UHGV virus genome: UHGV-0098678 | DNA from: a virus | Length of the DNA: 38,888 nucleotides | Direction: 5' to 3' (one strand) | Part shown: piece by piece, positions 3,696-28,518 of the stretch | How positions within the stretch are numbered: the first letter of the stretch is position 1 | Layout of the letters: each line of letters opens with the position of its first letter | Program-made: the position numbers and the translations under genes | The notes under the pieces: model-generated | What the model was told of the DNA's origin: nothing | Seen by the model: the letters and a program-made list of their open reading frames with translations, nothing else | The model's database searches: none

Positions 3696-6158
3696 TCAAT
3701 TCCCTGTTAATTGCAAAACTTGCTCTTCCAGCTTTTTAACCCTGCGTCTCATCATCGCAGATTCCAGAATCAGAGCCTCTTCATAACGGATACCGTAACA
3801 TTCACCAGCCTCGACGGCTTCGCGTACCAGAACCTTTGTCTGTATAAGTGGGTAAACTCCTGCAGAATGCTCTTCTTCCGTCACATCCCTGTATTCTGCC
3901 GGGGTCTCATTCCACTTGTCATAACAGATAAATGCCAGTCGTGACACATCTATGCCTTCATTCTGAAATACACTGATAACATGCTGCGCAACTGCACCAA
4001 AGTGCCATCTTGCTCCGTCTTTACCTTTCACTTCGATCCTGTCAAGGTACTGGTATGAAACCCATTCCACTCTTTCCCATGCGTCCAGTATTTTCTCATC
4101 AATAACCTCTGGAGCAGTCTTGAAACGCGCATCGGACAGCACCGTAAACGCTGACTGGGTAAATCCCCCCGACCATGCACGACCAGCCAACCCAAGAGAA
4201 TAAGTATTCGTTGTCGATGGTGTCATGGCTGAATCAGAAAACTGTATATATTCTGAATTTCCAGTAGATATTCGAATATTTCCATTTATTAGCGACATAG
4301 TGCCTTTAGTATTATCACTATTGAATAATTTCAATTGCGAACTTATACCGCCTCCCACAGCCAGAGATACATCGCCTTCAGCAAGCATTCTGAATTTATC
4401 TGCAGAAACAAGCGTCTGGTTAGCAAGGTTAAAATATTTAACCCACCATTCAAAACGCCCTGACATAGTCCCAACGTACTGACCAAGCGCAGGGACGTGA
4501 ACAACATTGCTATTTGTAGTGCCGTCTATACTGGAAATACCAGTCACCGCTGATGCAGAACTCAGAATATTATTTCTGTCACCCGGATGTTTAATTTCAA
4601 CAAAGTTCCTGATACACCCTTCCTCGAAGGTAACCACGCCGGAAGAACTATACATGGGGAATATTGACGCATAATTACTGCGTGCAGCATCTAAGAAACG
4701 AATGGTTGTAGATGTCTGCAGATCTCCTGATTCATTTTTCCCATCACACCCAGTCATTAGAATATTACTGGCAATATTATTATTTCCATGAACGGTGACT
4801 CCGTGCGCCTGCTTTGCGTCCGATTCAGAGTAATCAACCAGCACATTCGAAATCAGGTTACCAGTCCCCTTGCCAACAACTACTGCGGCGTATTTTGGGT
4901 TGTTAGCCATTACACTGCTAATGATATTATTCGTTGGGGCAGTTTCCGTCTCAGTTCCATTGTAAACAACGTGCTGACACTCTTCACCAATAACATTGCT
5001 GACAATGTTATATTTTGCTGCTGTTTTAAGTTCCACTGCACCAAACTGAGGATAATTTCTGGCTATCACACCATCAATTAGCGTATTTTGCGATGAATCA
5101 AAAAGCACACAACCTGCTTTTTTATTATTTGCGAACCCTAAATACTCTCCTCTTATATCTCTAACAATGTAACCTGACGGAATACCATTATTCGGATAAG
5201 CGATCAAGCTAAATCCTGTTCCTCGCGTATTTGTAAATCTGATATTTTTAACCGATACATCATGGCCACCTGAAAATGACACCTGGTGTCCCTGCACACT
5301 ATCATCTGATTTATTTCCCATAATTGTTAGCGTACTAAGCATGCCACCATCGGGCATGTTAAAAACCAGATGATTACCATCTCTGTCATACTGTTTTATC
5401 GTTCCCCCACCTGTTCCGTACAAGCCACAACGTGAAAGAGAAACTAAAGATGTATTGAATACCCCTTCCGGAACAAAAACACTGCTAAACGAATGTAATG
5501 ATTTTGTAAAAGCATCCTTGTTATCATTTAAGATTCCATTTTGAGCTCCAAAATCCTTAATGCTGACACCATCACGCATCTTATCCTGGAACGTTCTGTA
5601 TACCGCTCCAGAACCATACTGAATAAACCAACCAAAACCACCAATAACTCCGGCGATTGCAGCATCGACATAATTACGCATTGAGCGATTATTTACAGCG
5701 TCCTGCTCAAGTGATGGATCGGCAAGGTTAGATATTCTGTTTTGCTTTGCATCGTAATATTTTGCAAGCAAAGATGGTTTCATCAATGCACGTCTGAACC
5801 ACCCAAAACATCGCTGGATCAGCATCGTCAGGTAGTCAAATGCATCCTCATGAACTTCGGGGAAAAATTTTCCCTGATTGCGAAGATCAGTCTCCTGCAC
5901 CACATCAAGCACACGCTCTATCGTGATTCGCCAGCCAGCAGCAAGCGGCGACGGAAGAACCACTGCACCGCCACTATAAGTTCCCGCCCCTGTTACCGTA
6001 TAACCAGCATCCAGCACTAGTTTTGTAACGTTACCGTTAAGGTCAGACACCTGAACAACCAGGTCGGATTTTTTGAAAATACGGAAGGTATACGGAAATG
6101 ATGTCGTAACGCCGTTACCTGTGTATTCGTTGTGGTCAACTTCGGTTGAGACCGTCAT
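3696..6158 (-). CDS. tail fiber / tailspike with T7 gp17-like N-terminal adaptor, central beta-helix-like region and C-terminal S74-type intramolecular chaperone domain
   Basis: 820 aa. N-terminus (YTGNGVTTSFPYTF ... NRISNLADPSLEQDAVNNRSMRNYV) matches the T7 tail-fiber N-terminal domain pattern; C-terminus contains SDARFK and a coiled-coil tail typical of self-cleaving chaperone domains; SD GGAG 8 nt upstream of ATG 6158. Confidence 0.75.
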   Translation of the reverse strand: MTVSTEVDHNEYTGNGVTTSFPYTFRIFKKSDLVVQVSDLNGNVTKLVLDAGYTVTGAGTYSGGAVVLPSPLAAGWRITIERVLDVVQETDLRNQGKFFPEVHEDAFDYLTMLIQRCFGWFRRALMKPSLLAKYYDAKQNRISNLADPSLEQDAVNNRSMRNYVDAAIAGVIGGFGWFIQYGSGAVYRTFQDKMRDGVSIKDFGAQNGILNDNKDAFTKSLHSFSSVFVPEGVFNTSLVSLSRCGLYGTGGGTIKQYDRDGNHLVFNMPDGGMLSTLTIMGNKSDDSVQGHQVSFSGGHDVSVKNIRFTNTRGTGFSLIAYPNNGIPSGYIVRDIRGEYLGFANNKKAGCVLFDSSQNTLIDGVIARNYPQFGAVELKTAAKYNIVSNVIGEECQHVVYNGTETETAPTNNIISSVMANNPKYAAVVVGKGTGNLISNVLVDYSESDAKQAHGVTVHGNNNIASNILMTGCDGKNESGDLQTSTTIRFLDAARSNYASIFPMYSSSGVVTFEEGCIRNFVEIKHPGDRNNILSSASAVTGISSIDGTTNSNVVHVPALGQYVGTMSGRFEWWVKYFNLANQTLVSADKFRMLAEGDVSLAVGGGISSQLKLFNSDNTKGTMSLINGNIRISTGNSEYIQFSDSAMTPSTTNTYSLGLAGRAWSGGFTQSAFTVLSDARFKTAPEVIDEKILDAWERVEWVSYQYLDRIEVKGKDGARWHFGAVAQHVISVFQNEGIDVSRLAFICYDKWNETPAEYRDVTEEEHSAGVYPLIQTKVLVREAVEAGECYGIRYEEALILESAMMRRRVKKLEEQVLQLTGN

Positions 6159-6262
6159 GTTAAATCTCCAGATAGTCGCAGCACCCGTTGCGCCGCATAT
6201 CTGGTTATTCTATTACCCAAAAAACCATATATGGATAGAAAGACTGTGAATATGAATAGATA

Positions 6263-6658: not shown

Positions 6659-6751
6659 ATTTACATTGCACTCCTCTTGTGCCATAGTAATCAGGCACTG
6701 GCAAAATCCAGTGCCGGGATTGGTCTCCCGGATTACTACAGAGGCACATAT

Positions 6752-6771
6752 GCCGCATAAGCGGTTTTTTT
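6752..6771 (+). terminator. weak rho-independent terminator candidate
   Basis: Short GC stem (CCGC ataa GCGG) followed by seven T residues, about 140 nt downstream of the small antirepressor ORF. Confidence 0.3.
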
Positions 6772-6925
6772 ATGTGTAAAGCGCACCTATTCTATGGTGG
6801 GCTGTGTGGGGGCACCGAAAGGTGCGCCGGGTTCCTTTGTAGCCGGTAAGACCAACTCTGCACAGTTCACCACCATCTGATTGGTCTCAGCGGTGGTGAT
6901 TAACCTAACTACAAAGGTGATCGCC

Positions 6926-7618
6926 ATGAATACCAAACCTTCCATCTTTTCCTTTGAGTCATCCTGCCAGATCCGTATGTTCATGATTGACGGAGAACCT
7001 TGGTTTGTCACCAAAGATGTGTGCAATGCTTTGAATATTGATGTTACACAAGCGAGAAAACTTGATAAAAAAGGCTGGAACAAAAAGGGGCTGTATTCAA
7101 TACAGACCCCTGGTGGAATACAAGAACTATCCATCGTTTCAGAATCAGGTCTCTACATCCTTATTCTGCGTTGCAAAGAGGCAATGACAGAGGGAACGAG
7201 AGCATTCAGATTTCTTGAATGGGTTACAGGTGAGGTTCTTCCTCAGATCCGCCGCACCGGAAGTTACATTAAAAACTCGCTCCCGCAGGAAGAACGCATA
7301 AAGATGGTTGCCGACCAGGTAGCCAACGCCACAGCATCAGCAGTGATGCAGGCAATGAAGATAGAGAACAAAACCTACAGTGCCCCACTGAAGCCCGGCT
7401 ACCGCAGCCTGATTCACTCGCCGTCTGGTGTTCTCGGCCTGACGGAGAACTCACTGCTGATGAATCTGCTGAACCAGTTACAGGACGACGGGCACGACGT
7501 ATCGGGCGCGGCGGCGGAGCTGACCACCATGTTCTGCTACATCGTTGGTGTGAGCAAATGCCTGCGTGATATCCAGACGCACGCGGAGTACATCAACGAC
7601 AAGGCAGGGTTCTTCTGA
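6926..7618 (+). CDS. Bro-N domain antirepressor
   Basis: ATG at 6926 with SD AAAGGTGA; N-terminus FSFESSCQIRMFMIDGEPWFVTKDVCNALNI matches the Bro-N/antirepressor fold; C-terminal domain is paralogous to the small ORF at 6340-6612. Confidence 0.75.
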   Translation: MNTKPSIFSFESSCQIRMFMIDGEPWFVTKDVCNALNIDVTQARKLDKKGWNKKGLYSIQTPGGIQELSIVSESGLYILILRCKEAMTEGTRAFRFLEWVTGEVLPQIRRTGSYIKNSLPQEERIKMVADQVANATASAVMQAMKIENKTYSAPLKPGYRSLIHSPSGVLGLTENSLLMNLLNQLQDDGHDVSGAAAELTTMFCYIVGVSKCLRDIQTHAEYINDKAGFF

Positions 7619-8436: not shown

Positions 8437-8598
8437 ATGAAAAAAGCATTTGCTGCACTGTTCGTTTTGTTGTCTCTGGTAGCTTCAACTCAGGCCTTTG
8501 CCGGTCGTTGTCAGCACGACAGCGACACTGCTGCTGACGGCTCCCGCTGCGGTGGGCGTTCTGCGGATTCCCGTCCGGGCGGCGGTGGCATTCGTTAA
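8437..8598 (+). CDS. small secreted Cys-containing Gly/Arg-rich peptide (53 aa precursor)
   Basis: Internal ATG 8437 of the track ORF 8365-8598 gives MKKAFAALFVLLSLVASTQAFA (signal peptide) followed by a roughly 30-aa mature part with two Cys; weak SD. Confidence 0.35.
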   Translation: MKKAFAALFVLLSLVASTQAFAGRCQHDSDTAADGSRCGGRSADSRPGGGGIR

Positions 8599-8627
8599 AA
8601 ACAAGGCCGCGAAAGCGGCCTGTTTGA
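8597..8627. terminator. bidirectional rho-independent terminator
   Basis: A-rich tract, stem GGCCGC gaaa GCGGCC (GNRA-type loop), then TGTTTG; lies between the convergent genes ending at 8598 (+) and 8628 (-). Confidence 0.6.
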
Positions 8628-22630: not shown

Positions 22631-22927
22631 TCACTCCTGTTCACTGGCCTCTTTGGCCATCTTCAAATACTGTTCAGGGCAATGCGCCATAACGCGCTGA
22701 AACAGTTCCAGCGCCAGATTGCGTTGCCCCTCATTAAATGCCATAGCCATAGCGTCCATCGGTGAGATAGCGGAAAACACACGGCCTTTCTCCAGCACCG
22801 ACCAGACAACGCGACGCCCCTGTTCACTGCTCATGACAAAGCAAATGTCATCAATTTCACGCTGTGCCATGTCACGTTGCTTACGGGCGTTTTCTTCTTT
22901 CAGTTGATCGTCTTCGTAATCTGTCAT
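22631..22927 (-). CDS. hypothetical protein between portal and scaffold
   Basis: 98 aa; ATGA overlap with the portal stop; charged/helical. Confidence 0.45.
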   Translation of the reverse strand: MTDYEDDQLKEENARKQRDMAQREIDDICFVMSSEQGRRVVWSVLEKGRVFSAISPMDAMAMAFNEGQRNLALELFQRVMAHCPEQYLKMAKEASEQE

Positions 22928-24824: not shown

Positions 24825-24914
24825 ATCAATGACTCCGTACGCAATTAAATTATTACCAATTTAACCACATATGATTTATTTATCGTAGACAGTTGACATT
24901 TAACGTGCGAATTA

Positions 24915-24929
24915 TTACCTTTCAGGTAA
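24915..24929. promoter_or_regulatory. 15-bp palindrome TTACC-N5-GGTAA (putative operator)
   Basis: TTACCtttcaGGTAA, same core as the site at 6263; a TTGACA hexamer lies 17 nt upstream (24893-24898); in the noncoding gap between the portal-side genes and the tRNA. Confidence 0.45.
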
Positions 24930-25251
24930 CCAAAGAGTTCATTCCGGTTACTAACCTGACTGGCTTGTCGTTAAATTGAACAGGTGGAGTGAGCTTTTAT
25001 TTTGAGCAGTACGGCGTATGGCACATGCGCCGATAGCGGTCTGGATGCGTTTAAGGGGCACCCTCCCTGGCTGTGGCAAACGAACCAGGTAGCCGGAATG
25101 TGCAAGTCGAGCGGTTTTATTCCGCGCACGGGGATTCACCATCCCGGCGATTCGGTGTGACGCCTCGGAAGAGACGAGGGTACAACGATGAGAGCATTTA
25201 TGGAGCCGCGACAAAGTGTGGCGCCTTAACAGGCTAAGTGCTCTCAGCGTT

Positions 25252-25328
25252 GTGGCATTAGCTCAGTTGGACAGAGCAACCGCCTTCTAAGCGGTTGGTC
25301 GCAGGTTCGAATCCTGCATGCCACGCCA
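25252..25328 (+). tRNA. tRNA-Arg (anticodon UCU)
   Basis: Hand-folded cloverleaf: acceptor GTGGCAT/ATGCCAC, D-arm GCTC...GAGC, anticodon stem ACCGC/GCGGT with loop CTTCTAA (anticodon TCT), 5-nt variable loop, T-arm GCAGG-TTCGAAT-CCTGC, discriminator G, encoded CCA. Confidence 0.85.
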
Positions 25329-25526: not shown

Positions 25527-25949
25527 ATGAAAACAGCCGACATGCTAGCTAAATATCTAAATGAATGGCCGTGCAAATATGTACGCATTGTTCAGGGTGA
25601 TGACTCAATTTTTTATGGTGTTTTTGCAGGAAATGAAATGCTTTGTGAAGCAATTCCAGGTGAGCGACTTGCCGGGTTAACGCTTAGCGATGACCATGGA
25701 ATAGGAGTTACTTGCCATGACTGGATTTCAGCGCAGAAAACTGAAATGGAAAAAGGCAATGTGTTTGATATTTCTCGCGCTGTATACGCCAAAGAAAAAA
25801 GTGATGATGATTACATGCGCGAAAACTTATACAACATGAAGTTACAATGCCTGGCTGAAGTGCTTAGTAAAAGATCTTTACTTGATGTGGTTGGTGCTGA
25901 GCAGGACGCCAAGGCAATCAACGCCGCATTCGATAAAATAACCTTCTAA
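25527..25949 (+). CDS. hypothetical protein (moron, opposite strand to the structural operon)
   Basis: 140 aa; ATG 25527 with SD AAGGTGAG; flanked by terminators on both sides; no recognisable family. Confidence 0.55.
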   Translation: MKTADMLAKYLNEWPCKYVRIVQGDDSIFYGVFAGNEMLCEAIPGERLAGLTLSDDHGIGVTCHDWISAQKTEMEKGNVFDISRAVYAKEKSDDDYMRENLYNMKLQCLAEVLSKRSLLDVVGAEQDAKAINAAFDKITF

Positions 25950-25969
25950 CGCCGTGACATGTCACAATC

Positions 25970-25995
25970 AGCCCGCCGATTCGCGGGCTTTTTTA
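25970..25995 (+). terminator. rho-independent terminator
   Basis: Stem GCCCGC cgattc GCGGGC followed by TTTTTT; overlaps the stop codon of the convergent TerL gene. Confidence 0.65.
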
Positions 25996-27468
25996 TGCAA
26001 AAGGATCATAGTCTGTGATGGCTTTGCCTTGCTGGTTCTGCTGCCCAGGAATTCGCAGACGCTTCGACACAGGGAAAGCAAACGTCAGCAGTAGCGCATC
26101 GCCTTTACCCGGCGAACGCCCAAGCCGCTCCTTGATATCTTCCTTCGGTTCGATAACGATTTTACCGTCCACACGAACTTTGTACTCTGCTGCCGACAGG
26201 TCGTCCGCTGTTTCCTGGTCATCCAGCATGCCGCCGAGCCTCAGCCATGTCTTGCATGAGTTGAACATCTCCCCACGCTTGTTGAGCATCTGCGGGTCAG
26301 TAGACGCGCCACCGAACGGAACAAGTTGCCATGTACGACCCCAGCCGTCACCGATTGACTTCAGACCAGTTCCGTAACCGAAGTCGATGAACACTGCGTC
26401 AGCCTGGTACTGGTCTTCAAAGTCAGCGATACGCTTCGCCATAATCAGATCGTCAGTGGTCTTGTTGCCAGTCCACAGCACCTTACTGTGCAGCCCCTGC
26501 CGCAGGTATATCACAGCGTCATCAACGCCTGAGTATGCCGGGTCAACGCCGATTATCACCGGAGCATGTGCAACCTGCGCAGCGGTTACCACCCGTTTCA
26601 TTGCCTCGTCAGTAAGACCGGTAGGGATAAACTGCAATTCAGATGCATCAGGGAATATGCCGCGCACACGGATTTTAACGAAGTCGCTATCTTCCCCGTA
26701 GTCATCAACCCATTTCTGCAACTGCTGTTTGTTAGTGCCTTCCACCGTCCGGCTGTCAATCTGCGCAGTTTTCCAGCGGTGTTTATATTTGCGGAAACAT
26801 TCGCGGAAACGCCCGGTGTTACGTGTAGGGTTTCCGAACGCTACCCAGATAATCTCAGTGTCTTCGTCCGTAAGCGCACCCTCAGCAACTTCCCACACCA
26901 GATCCGCAATGTTCGACGCTTCATCGAATACCACGATGATGCGTTTGCGCTCGTTGTGTAGTCCGGCGAACGCCTCAGTGTTGTGCTCAGACCAGGGGAT
27001 TGCGTCAGCTCGCCACCGCTTGTCGTGCCCAGGGTCATTGCTGTACATCGCGGTAGCGGTACAGGTAAACCAGTCTTTCGTGATAGCAAGGTTCGACCAC
27101 TTGATAATTTCCGGCCAGGTCTTCGTTCGTAGCTGGTTGTCGGTGTTGGCGGTCACCACAACCTTACAATCCTCGCAAGTGGACATGCCCCAGTTGATCA
27201 GCATTGAGATGAATGCGGATTTACCAATACCGTGACCCGAAGCGCGTGCCAGCATAAGCGGCTGATAGCGCGTCTCTGGATTCTGCAGGTGATCACGTAT
27301 CTCTCGGAACGCATCAGCCTGCCACTGACGTGGACCGGTGGCATGTGCCAGTTCAGTCCCATCTTCCCCCCACGGGAACGCATAGAGGGCATAGCCAAGC
27401 GGATCGTGAGTGAACCCTGCAATATCCTCGATTAACTGCTCTTCAGGAGATAACGCTGTATCTGTCAC
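25993..27468 (-). CDS. terminase large subunit
   Basis: 491 aa; GTG start overlapping the TerS stop (GTGA); Walker A-like ARASGHGIGKS and acidic motif IIVVFDEASNI typical of TerL ATPase domains; C-terminal nuclease-like region. Confidence 0.8.
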   Translation of the reverse strand: MTDTALSPEEQLIEDIAGFTHDPLGYALYAFPWGEDGTELAHATGPRQWQADAFREIRDHLQNPETRYQPLMLARASGHGIGKSAFISMLINWGMSTCEDCKVVVTANTDNQLRTKTWPEIIKWSNLAITKDWFTCTATAMYSNDPGHDKRWRADAIPWSEHNTEAFAGLHNERKRIIVVFDEASNIADLVWEVAEGALTDEDTEIIWVAFGNPTRNTGRFRECFRKYKHRWKTAQIDSRTVEGTNKQQLQKWVDDYGEDSDFVKIRVRGIFPDASELQFIPTGLTDEAMKRVVTAAQVAHAPVIIGVDPAYSGVDDAVIYLRQGLHSKVLWTGNKTTDDLIMAKRIADFEDQYQADAVFIDFGYGTGLKSIGDGWGRTWQLVPFGGASTDPQMLNKRGEMFNSCKTWLRLGGMLDDQETADDLSAAEYKVRVDGKIVIEPKEDIKERLGRSPGKGDALLLTFAFPVSKRLRIPGQQNQQGKAITDYDPFA

Positions 27469-28061
27469 TGATTACCATCCTGACGTTCTTTGAGTCGCTT
27501 CCTGGCTGCTGCTATGCGATCAGCAATTGTCACATTCACATTAACATCCAGACGTTCTTTGAATGCGTTGACATCAACATGCTTACCAATCAGCTCAAGG
27601 TTCTTCACCTTGTCAGGCCATTTAATTTTTTTGAGGATTGTCTCTATTGAATCCTCGTTCATGTTCATGATGGTCGATGACAGATCAAAGCCACTAAGCG
27701 TAGTGCGCCAGATTTTCGGCCACTCACGGATTGGTTTAAGGCTCCCATCGTCGTTGAGGATGTCGATCACGTCCATCTGGTCGATCTCCACCAGGCGCAT
27801 GAGAACGTAATCAGCACTGACACGCATTCGTTTGTTGCGCTCCTCCATCAACTCGGCAATCCGTTTCTGAATGCGTTCATCGCGCATCATGACACTGGCT
27901 TTAACTGCCGCTGTATTTGGGGAGAATCCTGCGTTAATCGCAGCCTGAGTCTGGTTTTCAGGCGTTTTGATGTATGACTGGCAATAAGCCTCCTGCATTG
28001 CTGTGAGCGGCTTAAATTGCGTTGATTTGCGTTTATAGGTTTTAGGTTCAGCAGGCATCAT
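27465..28061 (-). CDS. terminase small subunit (start uncertain)
   Basis: Motif block AMQEAYCQSYIKTPENQTQAAINAGFSPNTAAVKASVMMRDERIQKRIAELMEE matches the TerS DNA-binding domain pattern; start taken at ATG 28061 (MMPAEPK...) because the track ORF begins at an upstream TTG with a hydrophobic extension. Confidence 0.6.
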   Translation of the reverse strand: MMPAEPKTYKRKSTQFKPLTAMQEAYCQSYIKTPENQTQAAINAGFSPNTAAVKASVMMRDERIQKRIAELMEERNKRMRVSADYVLMRLVEIDQMDVIDILNDDGSLKPIREWPKIWRTTLSGFDLSSTIMNMNEDSIETILKKIKWPDKVKNLELIGKHVDVNAFKERLDVNVNVTIADRIAAARKRLKERQDGNQ

Positions 28062-28078
28062 AACTACCGTGGTAATTG

Positions 28079-28093
28079 TTACCGTTGTGGTAA
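28079..28093. promoter_or_regulatory. 15-bp palindrome TTACC-N5-GGTAA (putative operator)
   Basis: TTACCgttgtGGTAA about 18 nt upstream of the proposed TerS start, just downstream of a - strand terminator hairpin. Confidence 0.45.
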
Positions 28094-28103
28094 TAATACC
28101 ATG

Positions 28104-28130
28104 CAAAATAAAGCCGCCATAGTTGGCGGC
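28104..28130 (-). terminator. rho-independent terminator on the - strand upstream of TerS (tR'-like position)
   Basis: On the - strand: GCCGCC aacuau GGCGGC followed by UUUAUUUU; located between the Cys-rich small gene (28180-28518) and TerS. Confidence 0.55.
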
Positions 28131-28179
28131 AGTATTCAAAATCCATCAAATTCATCATGCATAATCTACTCGTGACATG

Positions 28180-28518
28180 TCACACTATTAATTTCGTTTC
28201 ATGCCAGCCTTTAGTCACCCAGCATTGTGAGTCACCATTACACGGACATGAATTAACTGGAACTCTCTCGCCGCACTTACCGCAACGTGTTCTGCTGATC
28301 GATTTTATACGCCCGTGCACGCGTGCATCATCCTGGCGGATCAGTAACGCTATATACTCACCAAATTCGTAAGGCGCACGCCCGGGGCGACGCGTGGCAC
28401 AGTTACGCTCCAGAATTTCAATTTCCTGAGCATCAAGCACAATCTCCAGCTTACGCACACCAGATGCAGCTTGTCTGGCTCTCTGAGCGGCTTTGCGCTC
28501 TGCTGCTGATTTAGCCAT
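28180..28518 (-). CDS. hypothetical DNA-binding-like protein with Cys-rich C-terminal zinc-ribbon motif (candidate late regulator)
   Basis: ATG 28518 (track ORF begins one codon earlier at TTG); N-terminal basic/helical region (KLEIVLDAQEIEILERN) and C-terminal CGKCGERVPVNSCPCNGDSQC; last gene before the terminator and TerS. Confidence 0.4.
   Translation of the reverse strand: MAKSAAERKAAQRARQAASGVRKLEIVLDAQEIEILERNCATRRPGRAPYEFGEYIALLIRQDDARVHGRIKSISRTRCGKCGERVPVNSCPCNGDSQCWVTKGWHETKLIV

Follow-up and report, generated by a model that had tools for sequence, protein, structure and literature searches.

A symmetric 14-bp element at the 3' ends of transcription units in temperate phages and its association with a Cys-rich protein family

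We analyzed a 38,888-nucleotide stretch of viral DNA (UHGV virus genome UHGV-0098678; hereafter the window), an epsilon15/phiV10-like podophage (Uetakevirus) prophage with most of its genes on the minus strand. Beside the terminase genes terS and terL, the window carries two identical copies of a short palindrome, GTGACATGTCAC. Comparison with many other temperate phages of enterobacteria revealed that this palindrome is the core of a conserved, two-fold symmetric 14-bp element which lies at the 3' ends of transcription units, and which accompanies and co-varies with a family of phage-encoded Cys-rich proteins. From these sequence comparisons, we give about an even chance to the reading that the element is the cognate site of the phage's Cys-rich protein and marks operon ends as a roadblock or insulator.

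The repeated palindrome in the window and its relatives

A search of the window returned two copies of GTGACATGTCAC, an exact 12-bp palindrome, at 25954-25965 and 28172-28183, and no others. The neighboring bases were the same at both copies (c...a on the + strand), giving identical 14-mers at 25953-25966 and 28171-28184. A preliminary description, made from the sequence, had reported two identical copies with the same flanking bases, one just past the 3' end of terL and one over the stop of the Cys-rich gene, and the search bore out both the copies and their placement. It had also called the repeat a 14-bp palindrome. Here the 12-bp core proved perfectly palindromic, while the 14-mers are identical to each other but not palindromic, as their c...a flanks are non-complementary. 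These flanks nevertheless fit a Y...R rule found throughout the family of sites (described below). The features on which the argument depends are as follows.

28180-28518, minus strand: gene for a basic, Cys-rich protein of 112 aa (family of phiV10 gp55, epsilon15 gp49 and N15 gp46; phrog_536)
28171-28184 (core 28172-28183), no strand: Site A, cGTGACATGTCACa, overlapping the TGA of the Cys-rich gene, where the early operon ends
28104-28130, minus strand: intrinsic-terminator-like hairpin GCCGCCAACTATGGCGGC and T run, 41 nt past Site A as the early operon is read
27465-28061, minus strand: terS (Terminase_2), likely start ATG at 28061
25993-27468, minus strand: terL
25970-25997, plus strand: terminator hairpin AGCCCGCCGATTCGCGGGCT and T run, which ends the + strand moron unit and converges on terL
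25953-25966, no strand: Site B, the same 14-bp element, at a mosaic junction
25527-25949, plus strand: 140-aa moron open reading frame (ORF; phrog_4846), with Site B at its 3' end

The TGA stop of the Cys-rich gene (28182-28180, minus strand) lies inside the Site A palindrome. Site B lies 4 nt past the stop of the 140-aa moron ORF and 4 nt ahead of the terminator of that ORF; it is 28 nt beyond the terL stop (25993-25995), with the terminator hairpin between them. Each copy is therefore found at the 3' end of a transcription unit abutting terS-terL, upstream of its own terminator in the direction in which that terminator works. The apparently symmetric bracketing of terS-terL arises because the early operon and the convergent moron unit each end with a site there.

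Two checks named in the preliminary description were made, against shuffled sequence and in related phages. None of 100 shuffled windows contained any copy of GTGACATGTCAC. The number of perfect 12-bp palindromes in the window (10) matched the simulated mean (10.5), and some repeated 12-bp palindrome arose in 49 of 2000 first-order Markov simulations (~2.5%). Taken from the window alone, the repeat is mildly unusual and suggestive only. We accepted the feature as real because it is conserved in relatives, not because of these statistics. A copy with one mismatch, GTGCCATGTCAC, occurs at 22864-22875 within a 98-aa coding ORF after the portal gene; it is kept in close relatives as coding sequence, is missing from the equivalent place in epsilon15, and is probably due to chance.

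The close relatives compared were 80 IMG/VR sequences with TerL 98-100% identical. Site A was present in nearly all of them and Site B in most. To the right of Site A, the relatives carry either the remnant ORF seen in the window or an intact small gene of ~70 aa. The surroundings of Site B were more variable. On its left stands either of two unrelated terminators. On its right, at least 8 unrelated genes in reverse orientation were found among the relatives, all with a stop codon 4 nt away from the palindrome, and the two flanks assort independently. One E. coli relative (L044; 5551 and 5944) carries two cassettes in tandem, each ending in palindrome and terminator. Conservation of the two copies extends to relatives from E. 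coli, Salmonella, Klebsiella and Enterobacter. In epsilon15 and in the Klebsiella and Enterobacter Uetakeviruses, the palindrome is found at both places, exact or with 1-2 changes, within flanks that are ~80% identical or unrelated. Across genera, palindrome and terminator are the only conserved DNA of the accessory region.

The complete epsilon15 genome contains exactly three copies, all in the order stop codon, palindrome, terminator. One is at the stop of gp49, one beside the stop of the moron behind terL, and one (19517) at the stop of gp18, where the long virion-gene operon ends. E. coli relatives also have a third copy, located beside the terminator of the antirepressor-side operon and followed by variable genes, with at least 9 different right flanks. 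At this position they read 'ggccgcgaaagcggcc TGTGACATGTCACG' and then continue into variable reverse-oriented genes. The corresponding place in the window holds neither a third palindrome nor an inserted gene:

8597-8625, no strand: missing third canonical site, where the window reads '...taaaaacaa ggccgcgaaagcggcc TGT|ttgatcac'

Compared with these relatives, the window has lost the third copy. The stretch 8439-8625 holds a small secreted or lipoprotein-like ORF (MKKAFAALFVLLSLVASTQAF...) and a terminator, directly after which relatives have the palindrome and a variable gene.

The records of epsilon15, N15 and phiKO2 list sites for repressor, IHF and partition, but none of the palindromes. 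The exact sequence was not found in the literature searched, in which nothing pertinent emerged on Uetakevirus termini, epsilon15/phiV10, moron palindromes or N15 gp46 either; a 'gp46' mentioned in proteomics of a telomere-phage lysogen could not be assigned to the Cys-rich family. In the literature searched and the curated records, the element is previously undescribed.

Association of the element with the Cys-rich gene family

We scanned one genome per bacterial species for the gene, which gave 66 loci encoding a homologue of the Cys-rich protein (identity down to ~37%) in species from Citrobacter to Xenorhabdus, Providencia, Rahnella and Yersinia. At least one YGTGACNNGTCACR lay within 5 kb in 55 of the 66 loci, and the total count within this distance was 62, against 0.15 expected. 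In 42 loci, the site was at the stop codon or ≤100 nt downstream. Uetakevirus-like loci made up only ~17 of the 66; the rest belonged to lambdoid nin regions or P2-like early-operon ends, or lay beside xis-int. The same arrangement of gene and site was found at gp22 of Pectobacterium phage ZF40 and at N15 gp46. The preliminary description had named the late regulator as one possible binder of the palindrome; the lambdoid phages with the Cys-rich gene also carry their own Q antiterminator.

In some lambdoid prophages of Xenorhabdus, Providencia and Rouxiella, the stop codon lacks a site, and an exact copy is found 3-4 kb farther upstream within the operon. This copy sits inside the gene in the cII position, where it encodes R-D-M-S, and its synonymous positions are kept while the flanks differ. 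Such copies are ~200 nt upstream of replication genes (L121, L126, L131, L134-L136, L140-L142, L147; 0.7-2.5 kb per locus). A Xenorhabdus prophage (L130; 5332 and 5963) has a tandem duplication with two copies of the Cys-rich gene, each unit ending in the palindrome. In Serratia/Symbiopectobacterium prophages (L105, L107, L108; ~5346-5375), the stop of the Cys-rich gene is free of the palindrome, and a LexA-box-like TACTGT-N8-ACAGTA comes directly after the gene.

Distant members of the family were accompanied by altered sites. Three copies of GTGACTGGTCAC, and no more, were found in N15. One is at the gene 46 stop and another inside repA; the third lies where the repA operon ends, ahead of the terminator that is followed by the antirepressor operon. 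In phiKO2, GTGACTGGTCAC likewise occurs exactly three times, at the places homologous to those of N15 and within diverged flanks. The N15 and phiKO2 proteins are 34-37% identical orthologues. Yersinia P2-like prophages, with a ~40% identical protein, have GTGACGCGTCAC at the stop codon and a degenerate neighbor. Lambda has neither the Cys-rich gene nor GTGAC-NN-GTCAC. The variant of the site tracks phage lineage and orthologue rather than host: N15 and the phage of the window, both from E. coli, differ. As variants differ between phages of one host, the reader is probably encoded by the phage and is not a host protein, and we regard the lineage-specific variants as the strongest argument for this. 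Furthermore, the predicted DNA-reading strand of the protein differs in lineages with a different site centre (RKLELVLD, NEIRARLE and TRRDWVLE). The preliminary description had raised the 112-aa protein as a possible binder, and its involvement is supported by a site that follows the gene family across phage types and co-varies with divergent orthologues.

The core of the element is GTGAC-NN-GTCAC, with GTGAC-AT-GTCAC in the window. Among 52 distinct contexts, retrieved regardless of flanking bases, position -1 was always Y and position +13 always R. This flank rule extends the full element to the 14-mer YGTGACATGTCACR, which is symmetric in the DNA sense. The flanks were C...A, which are unable to pair in RNA, in 10 of the 52 contexts. 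Together, the two-fold DNA symmetry and the C...A flanks suggest recognition by a protein dimer on duplex DNA rather than an RNA hairpin, in agreement with the earlier proposal of a protein-binding site.

Position relative to genes was equally consistent. An ORF of ≥60 codons ended at or just before the site in 106 of 135 distinct low-GC contexts, against 13.5% of random positions; of the ORF ends scored, 68 were formed by the internal TGA and 24 by a stop codon followed by 4 nt. A terminator-like hairpin lay ≤50 nt from the site in 50 of 141 cases (≤10 nt in 35 of them), compared with 4% of random positions.

A scan of IMG/VR starting from the site (TGTGACATGTCACG) gave at least 120 stretches, with 128 sites among the matches listed. 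Of these, 41 were at 3' ends of Cys-rich genes and 10 behind Uetakevirus terL; the rest were in other contexts, among them the ends of 10 or more unrelated genes and a number of positions within coding sequence. A site which ends unrelated genes fits an operon-end signal read in trans. Association in this direction, from site to gene, was examined on lambda and partial contigs. High-GC matches of the 14-mer scan were set aside as a different system. Five such contigs (L176, L195, L205, L224, L262) carry dense direct and inverted arrays of GTGAC/GTCAC half-sites inside ORFs which, by look and not by profile, resemble replication-initiator genes of unrelated high-GC phages. These arrays resemble origin iterons and are probably a separate system with a common half-site. 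Two further groups of coding copies were seen. In class B (L164, L169, L174, L226), the palindrome is translated as R-D-M-S within the N-terminus of an ORF, a region reminiscent of 933W-type Q antiterminators. In class D (L211, L221, others), it lies inside a 226-260-aa ORF directly upstream of lysis genes. The flanks of both classes are near-identical among the matches, and these copies may represent chance amplified by redundancy.

Candidate reader, proposed role and rival explanations

The Cys-rich protein belongs to a family of 601-938 members, all unnamed. Its match in PHROGs is to phrog_536 only, labelled 'transcriptional regulator'. Searches of Pfam, NCBIfam and PDB sequences yielded nothing significant, with one weak NCBIfam match to 'LexA regulated protein'. 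The N-terminus is arginine-rich. In an AlphaFold2 (AF2) model, a basic helix is followed by an extended segment and two helices, with a predicted local distance difference test (pLDDT) score of 82-91 over residues 31-70. The top structural matches were members of the ribbon-helix-helix fold; the fold assignment is weak. The protein likely combines a ribbon-helix-helix N-terminal half with a Cys-rich, zinc-binding tail. No relationship to MatP was detected (hhalign probability 0.1%).

We consider the pairing of this protein with the site somewhat more probable than not. We offer the roadblock as a tentative model that may well prove wrong. We infer binding, roadblock and autoregulation along the following lines. 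A ribbon-helix-helix-like protein would bind the 14-mer YGTGACATGTCACR as a dimer, at sites placed directly upstream of intrinsic terminators at transcription-unit 3' ends. The ends so marked in the window would be that of the early operon, at the protein's own stop codon, and that of the convergent tRNA/moron unit behind terL. The bound dimer would block or stall RNA polymerase at the unit boundary, and stalling would reinforce the terminator and insulate the neighboring repressor-controlled unit (terS-terL in the window, the antirepressor operon in relatives and N15). Transcription of the protein's own gene would be halted at or before the stop codon, resulting in negative autoregulation as for LacI at O3. 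Site and terminator may double as a crossover point for accessory-gene exchange, because together they are the sole conserved patch amid unrelated DNA; epsilon15 encodes recombination proteins of the RecT/RecE type.

LacI provides the precedent for this arrangement. It autoregulates by a roadblock at O3, at the 3' end of lacI (PMC3711431), and trans-translation follows when polymerase is blocked ahead of a stop codon (PMC13584721). The phage site likewise overlaps the 3' end of its putative regulator's own gene, with the TGA inside Site A and a site at the stop or ≤100 nt downstream at 42 of the 66 loci. In contrast to LacI, the stop-codon overlap is conserved across a whole protein family and several phage types, the Cys-rich protein is not a helix-turn-helix protein of the LacI type, and the phage roadblock is a proposed one. 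The predicted beta-alpha-alpha core behind a basic arm and the short two-fold symmetric site also recall ribbon-helix-helix repressors and their operators (Arc, Mnt, CopG, ParD, FitA, NikR). However, those operators are at promoters and the phage site is at operon ends beside terminators; the Cys-rich C-terminal domain was without an identified counterpart, and no sequence-family membership was found.

Several observations weigh against this reading. No site was present within 5 kb in 11 of the 66 gene loci. Providencia-type orthologues have a different predicted beta-strand yet the same AT-centred site. The at least 10 unrelated genes that end with the site are equally compatible with a reader other than the Cys-rich protein. 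Among the matches listed in the IMG/VR scan, 63 of 108 low-GC stretches were without a homologue, although these stretches are partial and the count is hence no test. Lastly, a roadblock by one bound dimer is an assumption.

Among the rivals, a packaging signal (a pac or cos element read by TerS/terminase) would account for two copies bracketing the terminase genes and for Site A lying ~110 nt upstream of terS, and the preliminary description had suggested such a tie to the terminase cassette. The wider comparison contradicts it. The stop of the Cys-rich gene is overlapped by the same site in phages of lambdoid, P2-like and N15-like type, which have other terminases; in the latter two groups the terminases are unrelated and the cos ends known. 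It accompanies the Cys-rich gene in lambdoid nin regions and beside integrases, often far from terminase genes. The third copy of epsilon15 is at 19.5 kb, at the end of the virion operon, that of the E. coli relatives is beside the antirepressor operon, and Site B moves with accessory genes (L044, L047). The phiV10 record does start inside the palindrome, which is a mere annotation convention. The element thus keeps neither to one terminase type nor to a place in or next to terS, as a headful pac or cos site would, and we consider a packaging role extremely improbable. A primary role as recombination linker or cassette boundary, used in moron exchange through RecT/RecE-type microhomology or a site-specific enzyme, explains more. 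The site is exactly at mosaic junctions, where two terminator types combine with at least 8 unrelated genes at Site B and the third canonical site repeats the pattern with at least 9 right flanks; the tandem cassettes of L044 each end in site and terminator; the window lacks the third site and the inserted gene together; and relatives encode RecT/RecE-like proteins. The junctions of backbone and accessory DNA, and an accessory unit with its own promoter and terminator, are also as in the linkers and morons of mosaic phages. Yet a neutral sequence would not keep its identity in phages of Xenorhabdus, Pantoea, Rahnella and Escherichia with flanks that randomize around it. A linker role explains neither the retention within coding sequence at synonymous positions nor the concerted change of the sites to a lineage-specific variant in N15 and phiKO2, and no recombinase is consistently adjacent. 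More than residual homology, and unlike known linkers, the element is a symmetric 14-mer of defined sequence that is strictly conserved and has a protein family linked to it. Any conserved patch is expected to serve as a junction as a by-product, and a linker as the primary role appears unlikely.

A site for a host protein, such as a matS-like site read by MatP or another Enterobacterales factor, is suggested by the presence of the element in phages of many enterobacterial genera and by its core, which equals matS (GTGAC-RNY-GTCAC) minus the central base. The likeness extends to identical half-sites (GTGAC ... GTCAC), to a ribbon-helix-helix domain, used by MatP and predicted for the phage reader, and to few, dispersed sites per replicon. 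However, matS (GTGAC[AG]N[TC]GTCAC) has a 13-bp core with a 3-nt centre (RNY) and is reported absent from 500 prophages (PMC3603311). Every phage variant (AT, TG, GC, CC, CG, GT and AG centres) has a 12-bp core with a 2-nt centre and departs from the 13-bp consensus, of which no form was found at these positions. The phage sites are at gene 3' ends in phage genomes and matS is in the chromosomal Ter macrodomain. With the variant tracking phage lineage within E. coli and lambda lacking the site, a host factor is very unlikely to be the reader; the resemblance to matS is a possible likeness in working, not family membership. The half-sites may reflect convergence with host MatP or deliberate non-recognition by it. 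An RNA element carries a similarly slight probability, whether as a 3'-untranslated-region hairpin or single-stranded seed, a small RNA, an element for processing or stability, or a signal for nut-like antitermination. It would be consistent with an element that is always transcribed at a unit 3' end, 0-41 nt ahead of a terminator hairpin, and with the arginine-rich N-terminus of the Cys-rich protein. Opposed to this, the central CATG is itself palindromic, which is needless for an RNA loop; the Y...R flanks are symmetric in the DNA sense, with C...A in 10 of 52 contexts; the three N15/phiKO2 sites include one that is reversed relative to transcription; an Rfam search found no family at either site; and a stem of 4-5 bp is marginal.

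Other candidates were rejected. Site A contains a -35-like GTGACA match, as for a late promoter or activator site, but the downstream sequence is unconserved, some relatives have a Shine-Dalgarno sequence and ATG only 9 nt from the site, and the real terS control region, with its repressor operator, lies after the terminator. Antitermination as in lambda Q/QBE or N/nut resembles the phage layout in its order of small regulator gene, cis site and terminator at the early/late boundary. However, the Cys-rich protein has no homology to Q or N, the site is not within a conserved promoter as in a Q module, and it is a symmetric DNA-level element of mixed orientation in N15/phiKO2, not a boxB-like RNA hairpin; the terminator is the one part held in common. 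Integron attC sites are imperfect inverted repeats of 57-141 bp with R/L boxes and an adjacent IntI, compared with 14 bp here, and no integron integrase was found in the ORF list of the window or in the relatives examined.

Beyond the binding of the Cys-rich protein to its site, we raise a more speculative idea, somewhat less probable than the roadblock itself. The Cys-rich family and YGTGACNNGTCACR could constitute an undescribed 'operon-end' system of temperate phages, a protein-assisted terminator/insulator with one to three sites per genome. Such a system would shield dangerous units (terminase, antirepressor and replication genes) from read-through. Its sites would double as standard accessory-gene junctions, and its own synthesis would be throttled at its own stop codon.

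If the pairing of protein and site is true, an orphan family of ~900 members would gain a function and a defined DNA target. This family is spread over Uetakevirus, lambdoid, P2-like and N15-like (telomere) prophages of E. coli, Salmonella, Klebsiella, Yersinia, Xenorhabdus and others. The regulatory layout would be a rare one, with an operator at the 3' end of a gene, over its stop codon and by a terminator, rather than at a promoter. The element would also be a concrete sequence for the points at which accessory cassettes are swapped, which bears on the spread of serotype-conversion, tRNA and defence genes. For annotation, the 14-mer could serve as a rule that flags transcription-unit ends.

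Neighboring features of the window

The minus-strand order at Site A is Cys-rich gene, remnant ORF, terminator hairpin, operator-like site, terS and terL. Besides the features given above, the surroundings of the two sites contain the following.

28136-28162, minus strand: 8-codon mini-ORF, a deletion remnant of the ~70-aa gene that follows Site A in some relatives
28078-28094, no strand: ATTACC-N5-GGTAAC, resembling a prophage-repressor operator, past the terminator and ahead of the terS start; epsilon15 has an annotated site at the homologous place
25252-25328, plus strand: tRNA-Arg(UCU), in the + strand accessory unit
24886-24930, plus strand: promoter-like site (24886-24915) for the accessory unit, overlapping a repressor operator-like site (24914-24930)

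The place in epsilon15 homologous to the hairpin at 28104-28130 is annotated as a rho-independent terminator. The operator-like site at 28078-28094 suggests that terS-terL is a separate repressor-controlled unit. In total, the window has nine operator-like sites of the form ATTACC-N5-GGTAAT (against 0.04 expected), at 6262, 7684, 24914, 28078, 31904, 31966, 34297, 35009 and 35071, and they match operators annotated in epsilon15. They are located in the immunity region and in front of terS, the portal unit (which is preceded by the site at 24914-24930) and the antirepressor region. Because operator-like sites precede terS and the portal unit, these late units appear to be repressed directly by the prophage repressor.

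The unit containing the tRNA and the 140-aa ORF has the features of a moron: its own promoter-like site, a terminator, and gene content that is replaced in relatives. From its promoter to the tRNA-Arg(UCU) runs a non-coding leader of ~270 nt (24985-25250, + strand), which folded only modestly better than its shuffles (z = -1.9); the equivalent region of epsilon15 carries an annotated RNase III site. Elsewhere, Rfam identified isrK (6695-6771) and C4 antisense RNA (6790-6877) on the + strand, upstream of an antirepressor-like ORF (6881-7618). This stretch constitutes an immI module (c4-icd-ant) of the P1/P7 type in a podophage.

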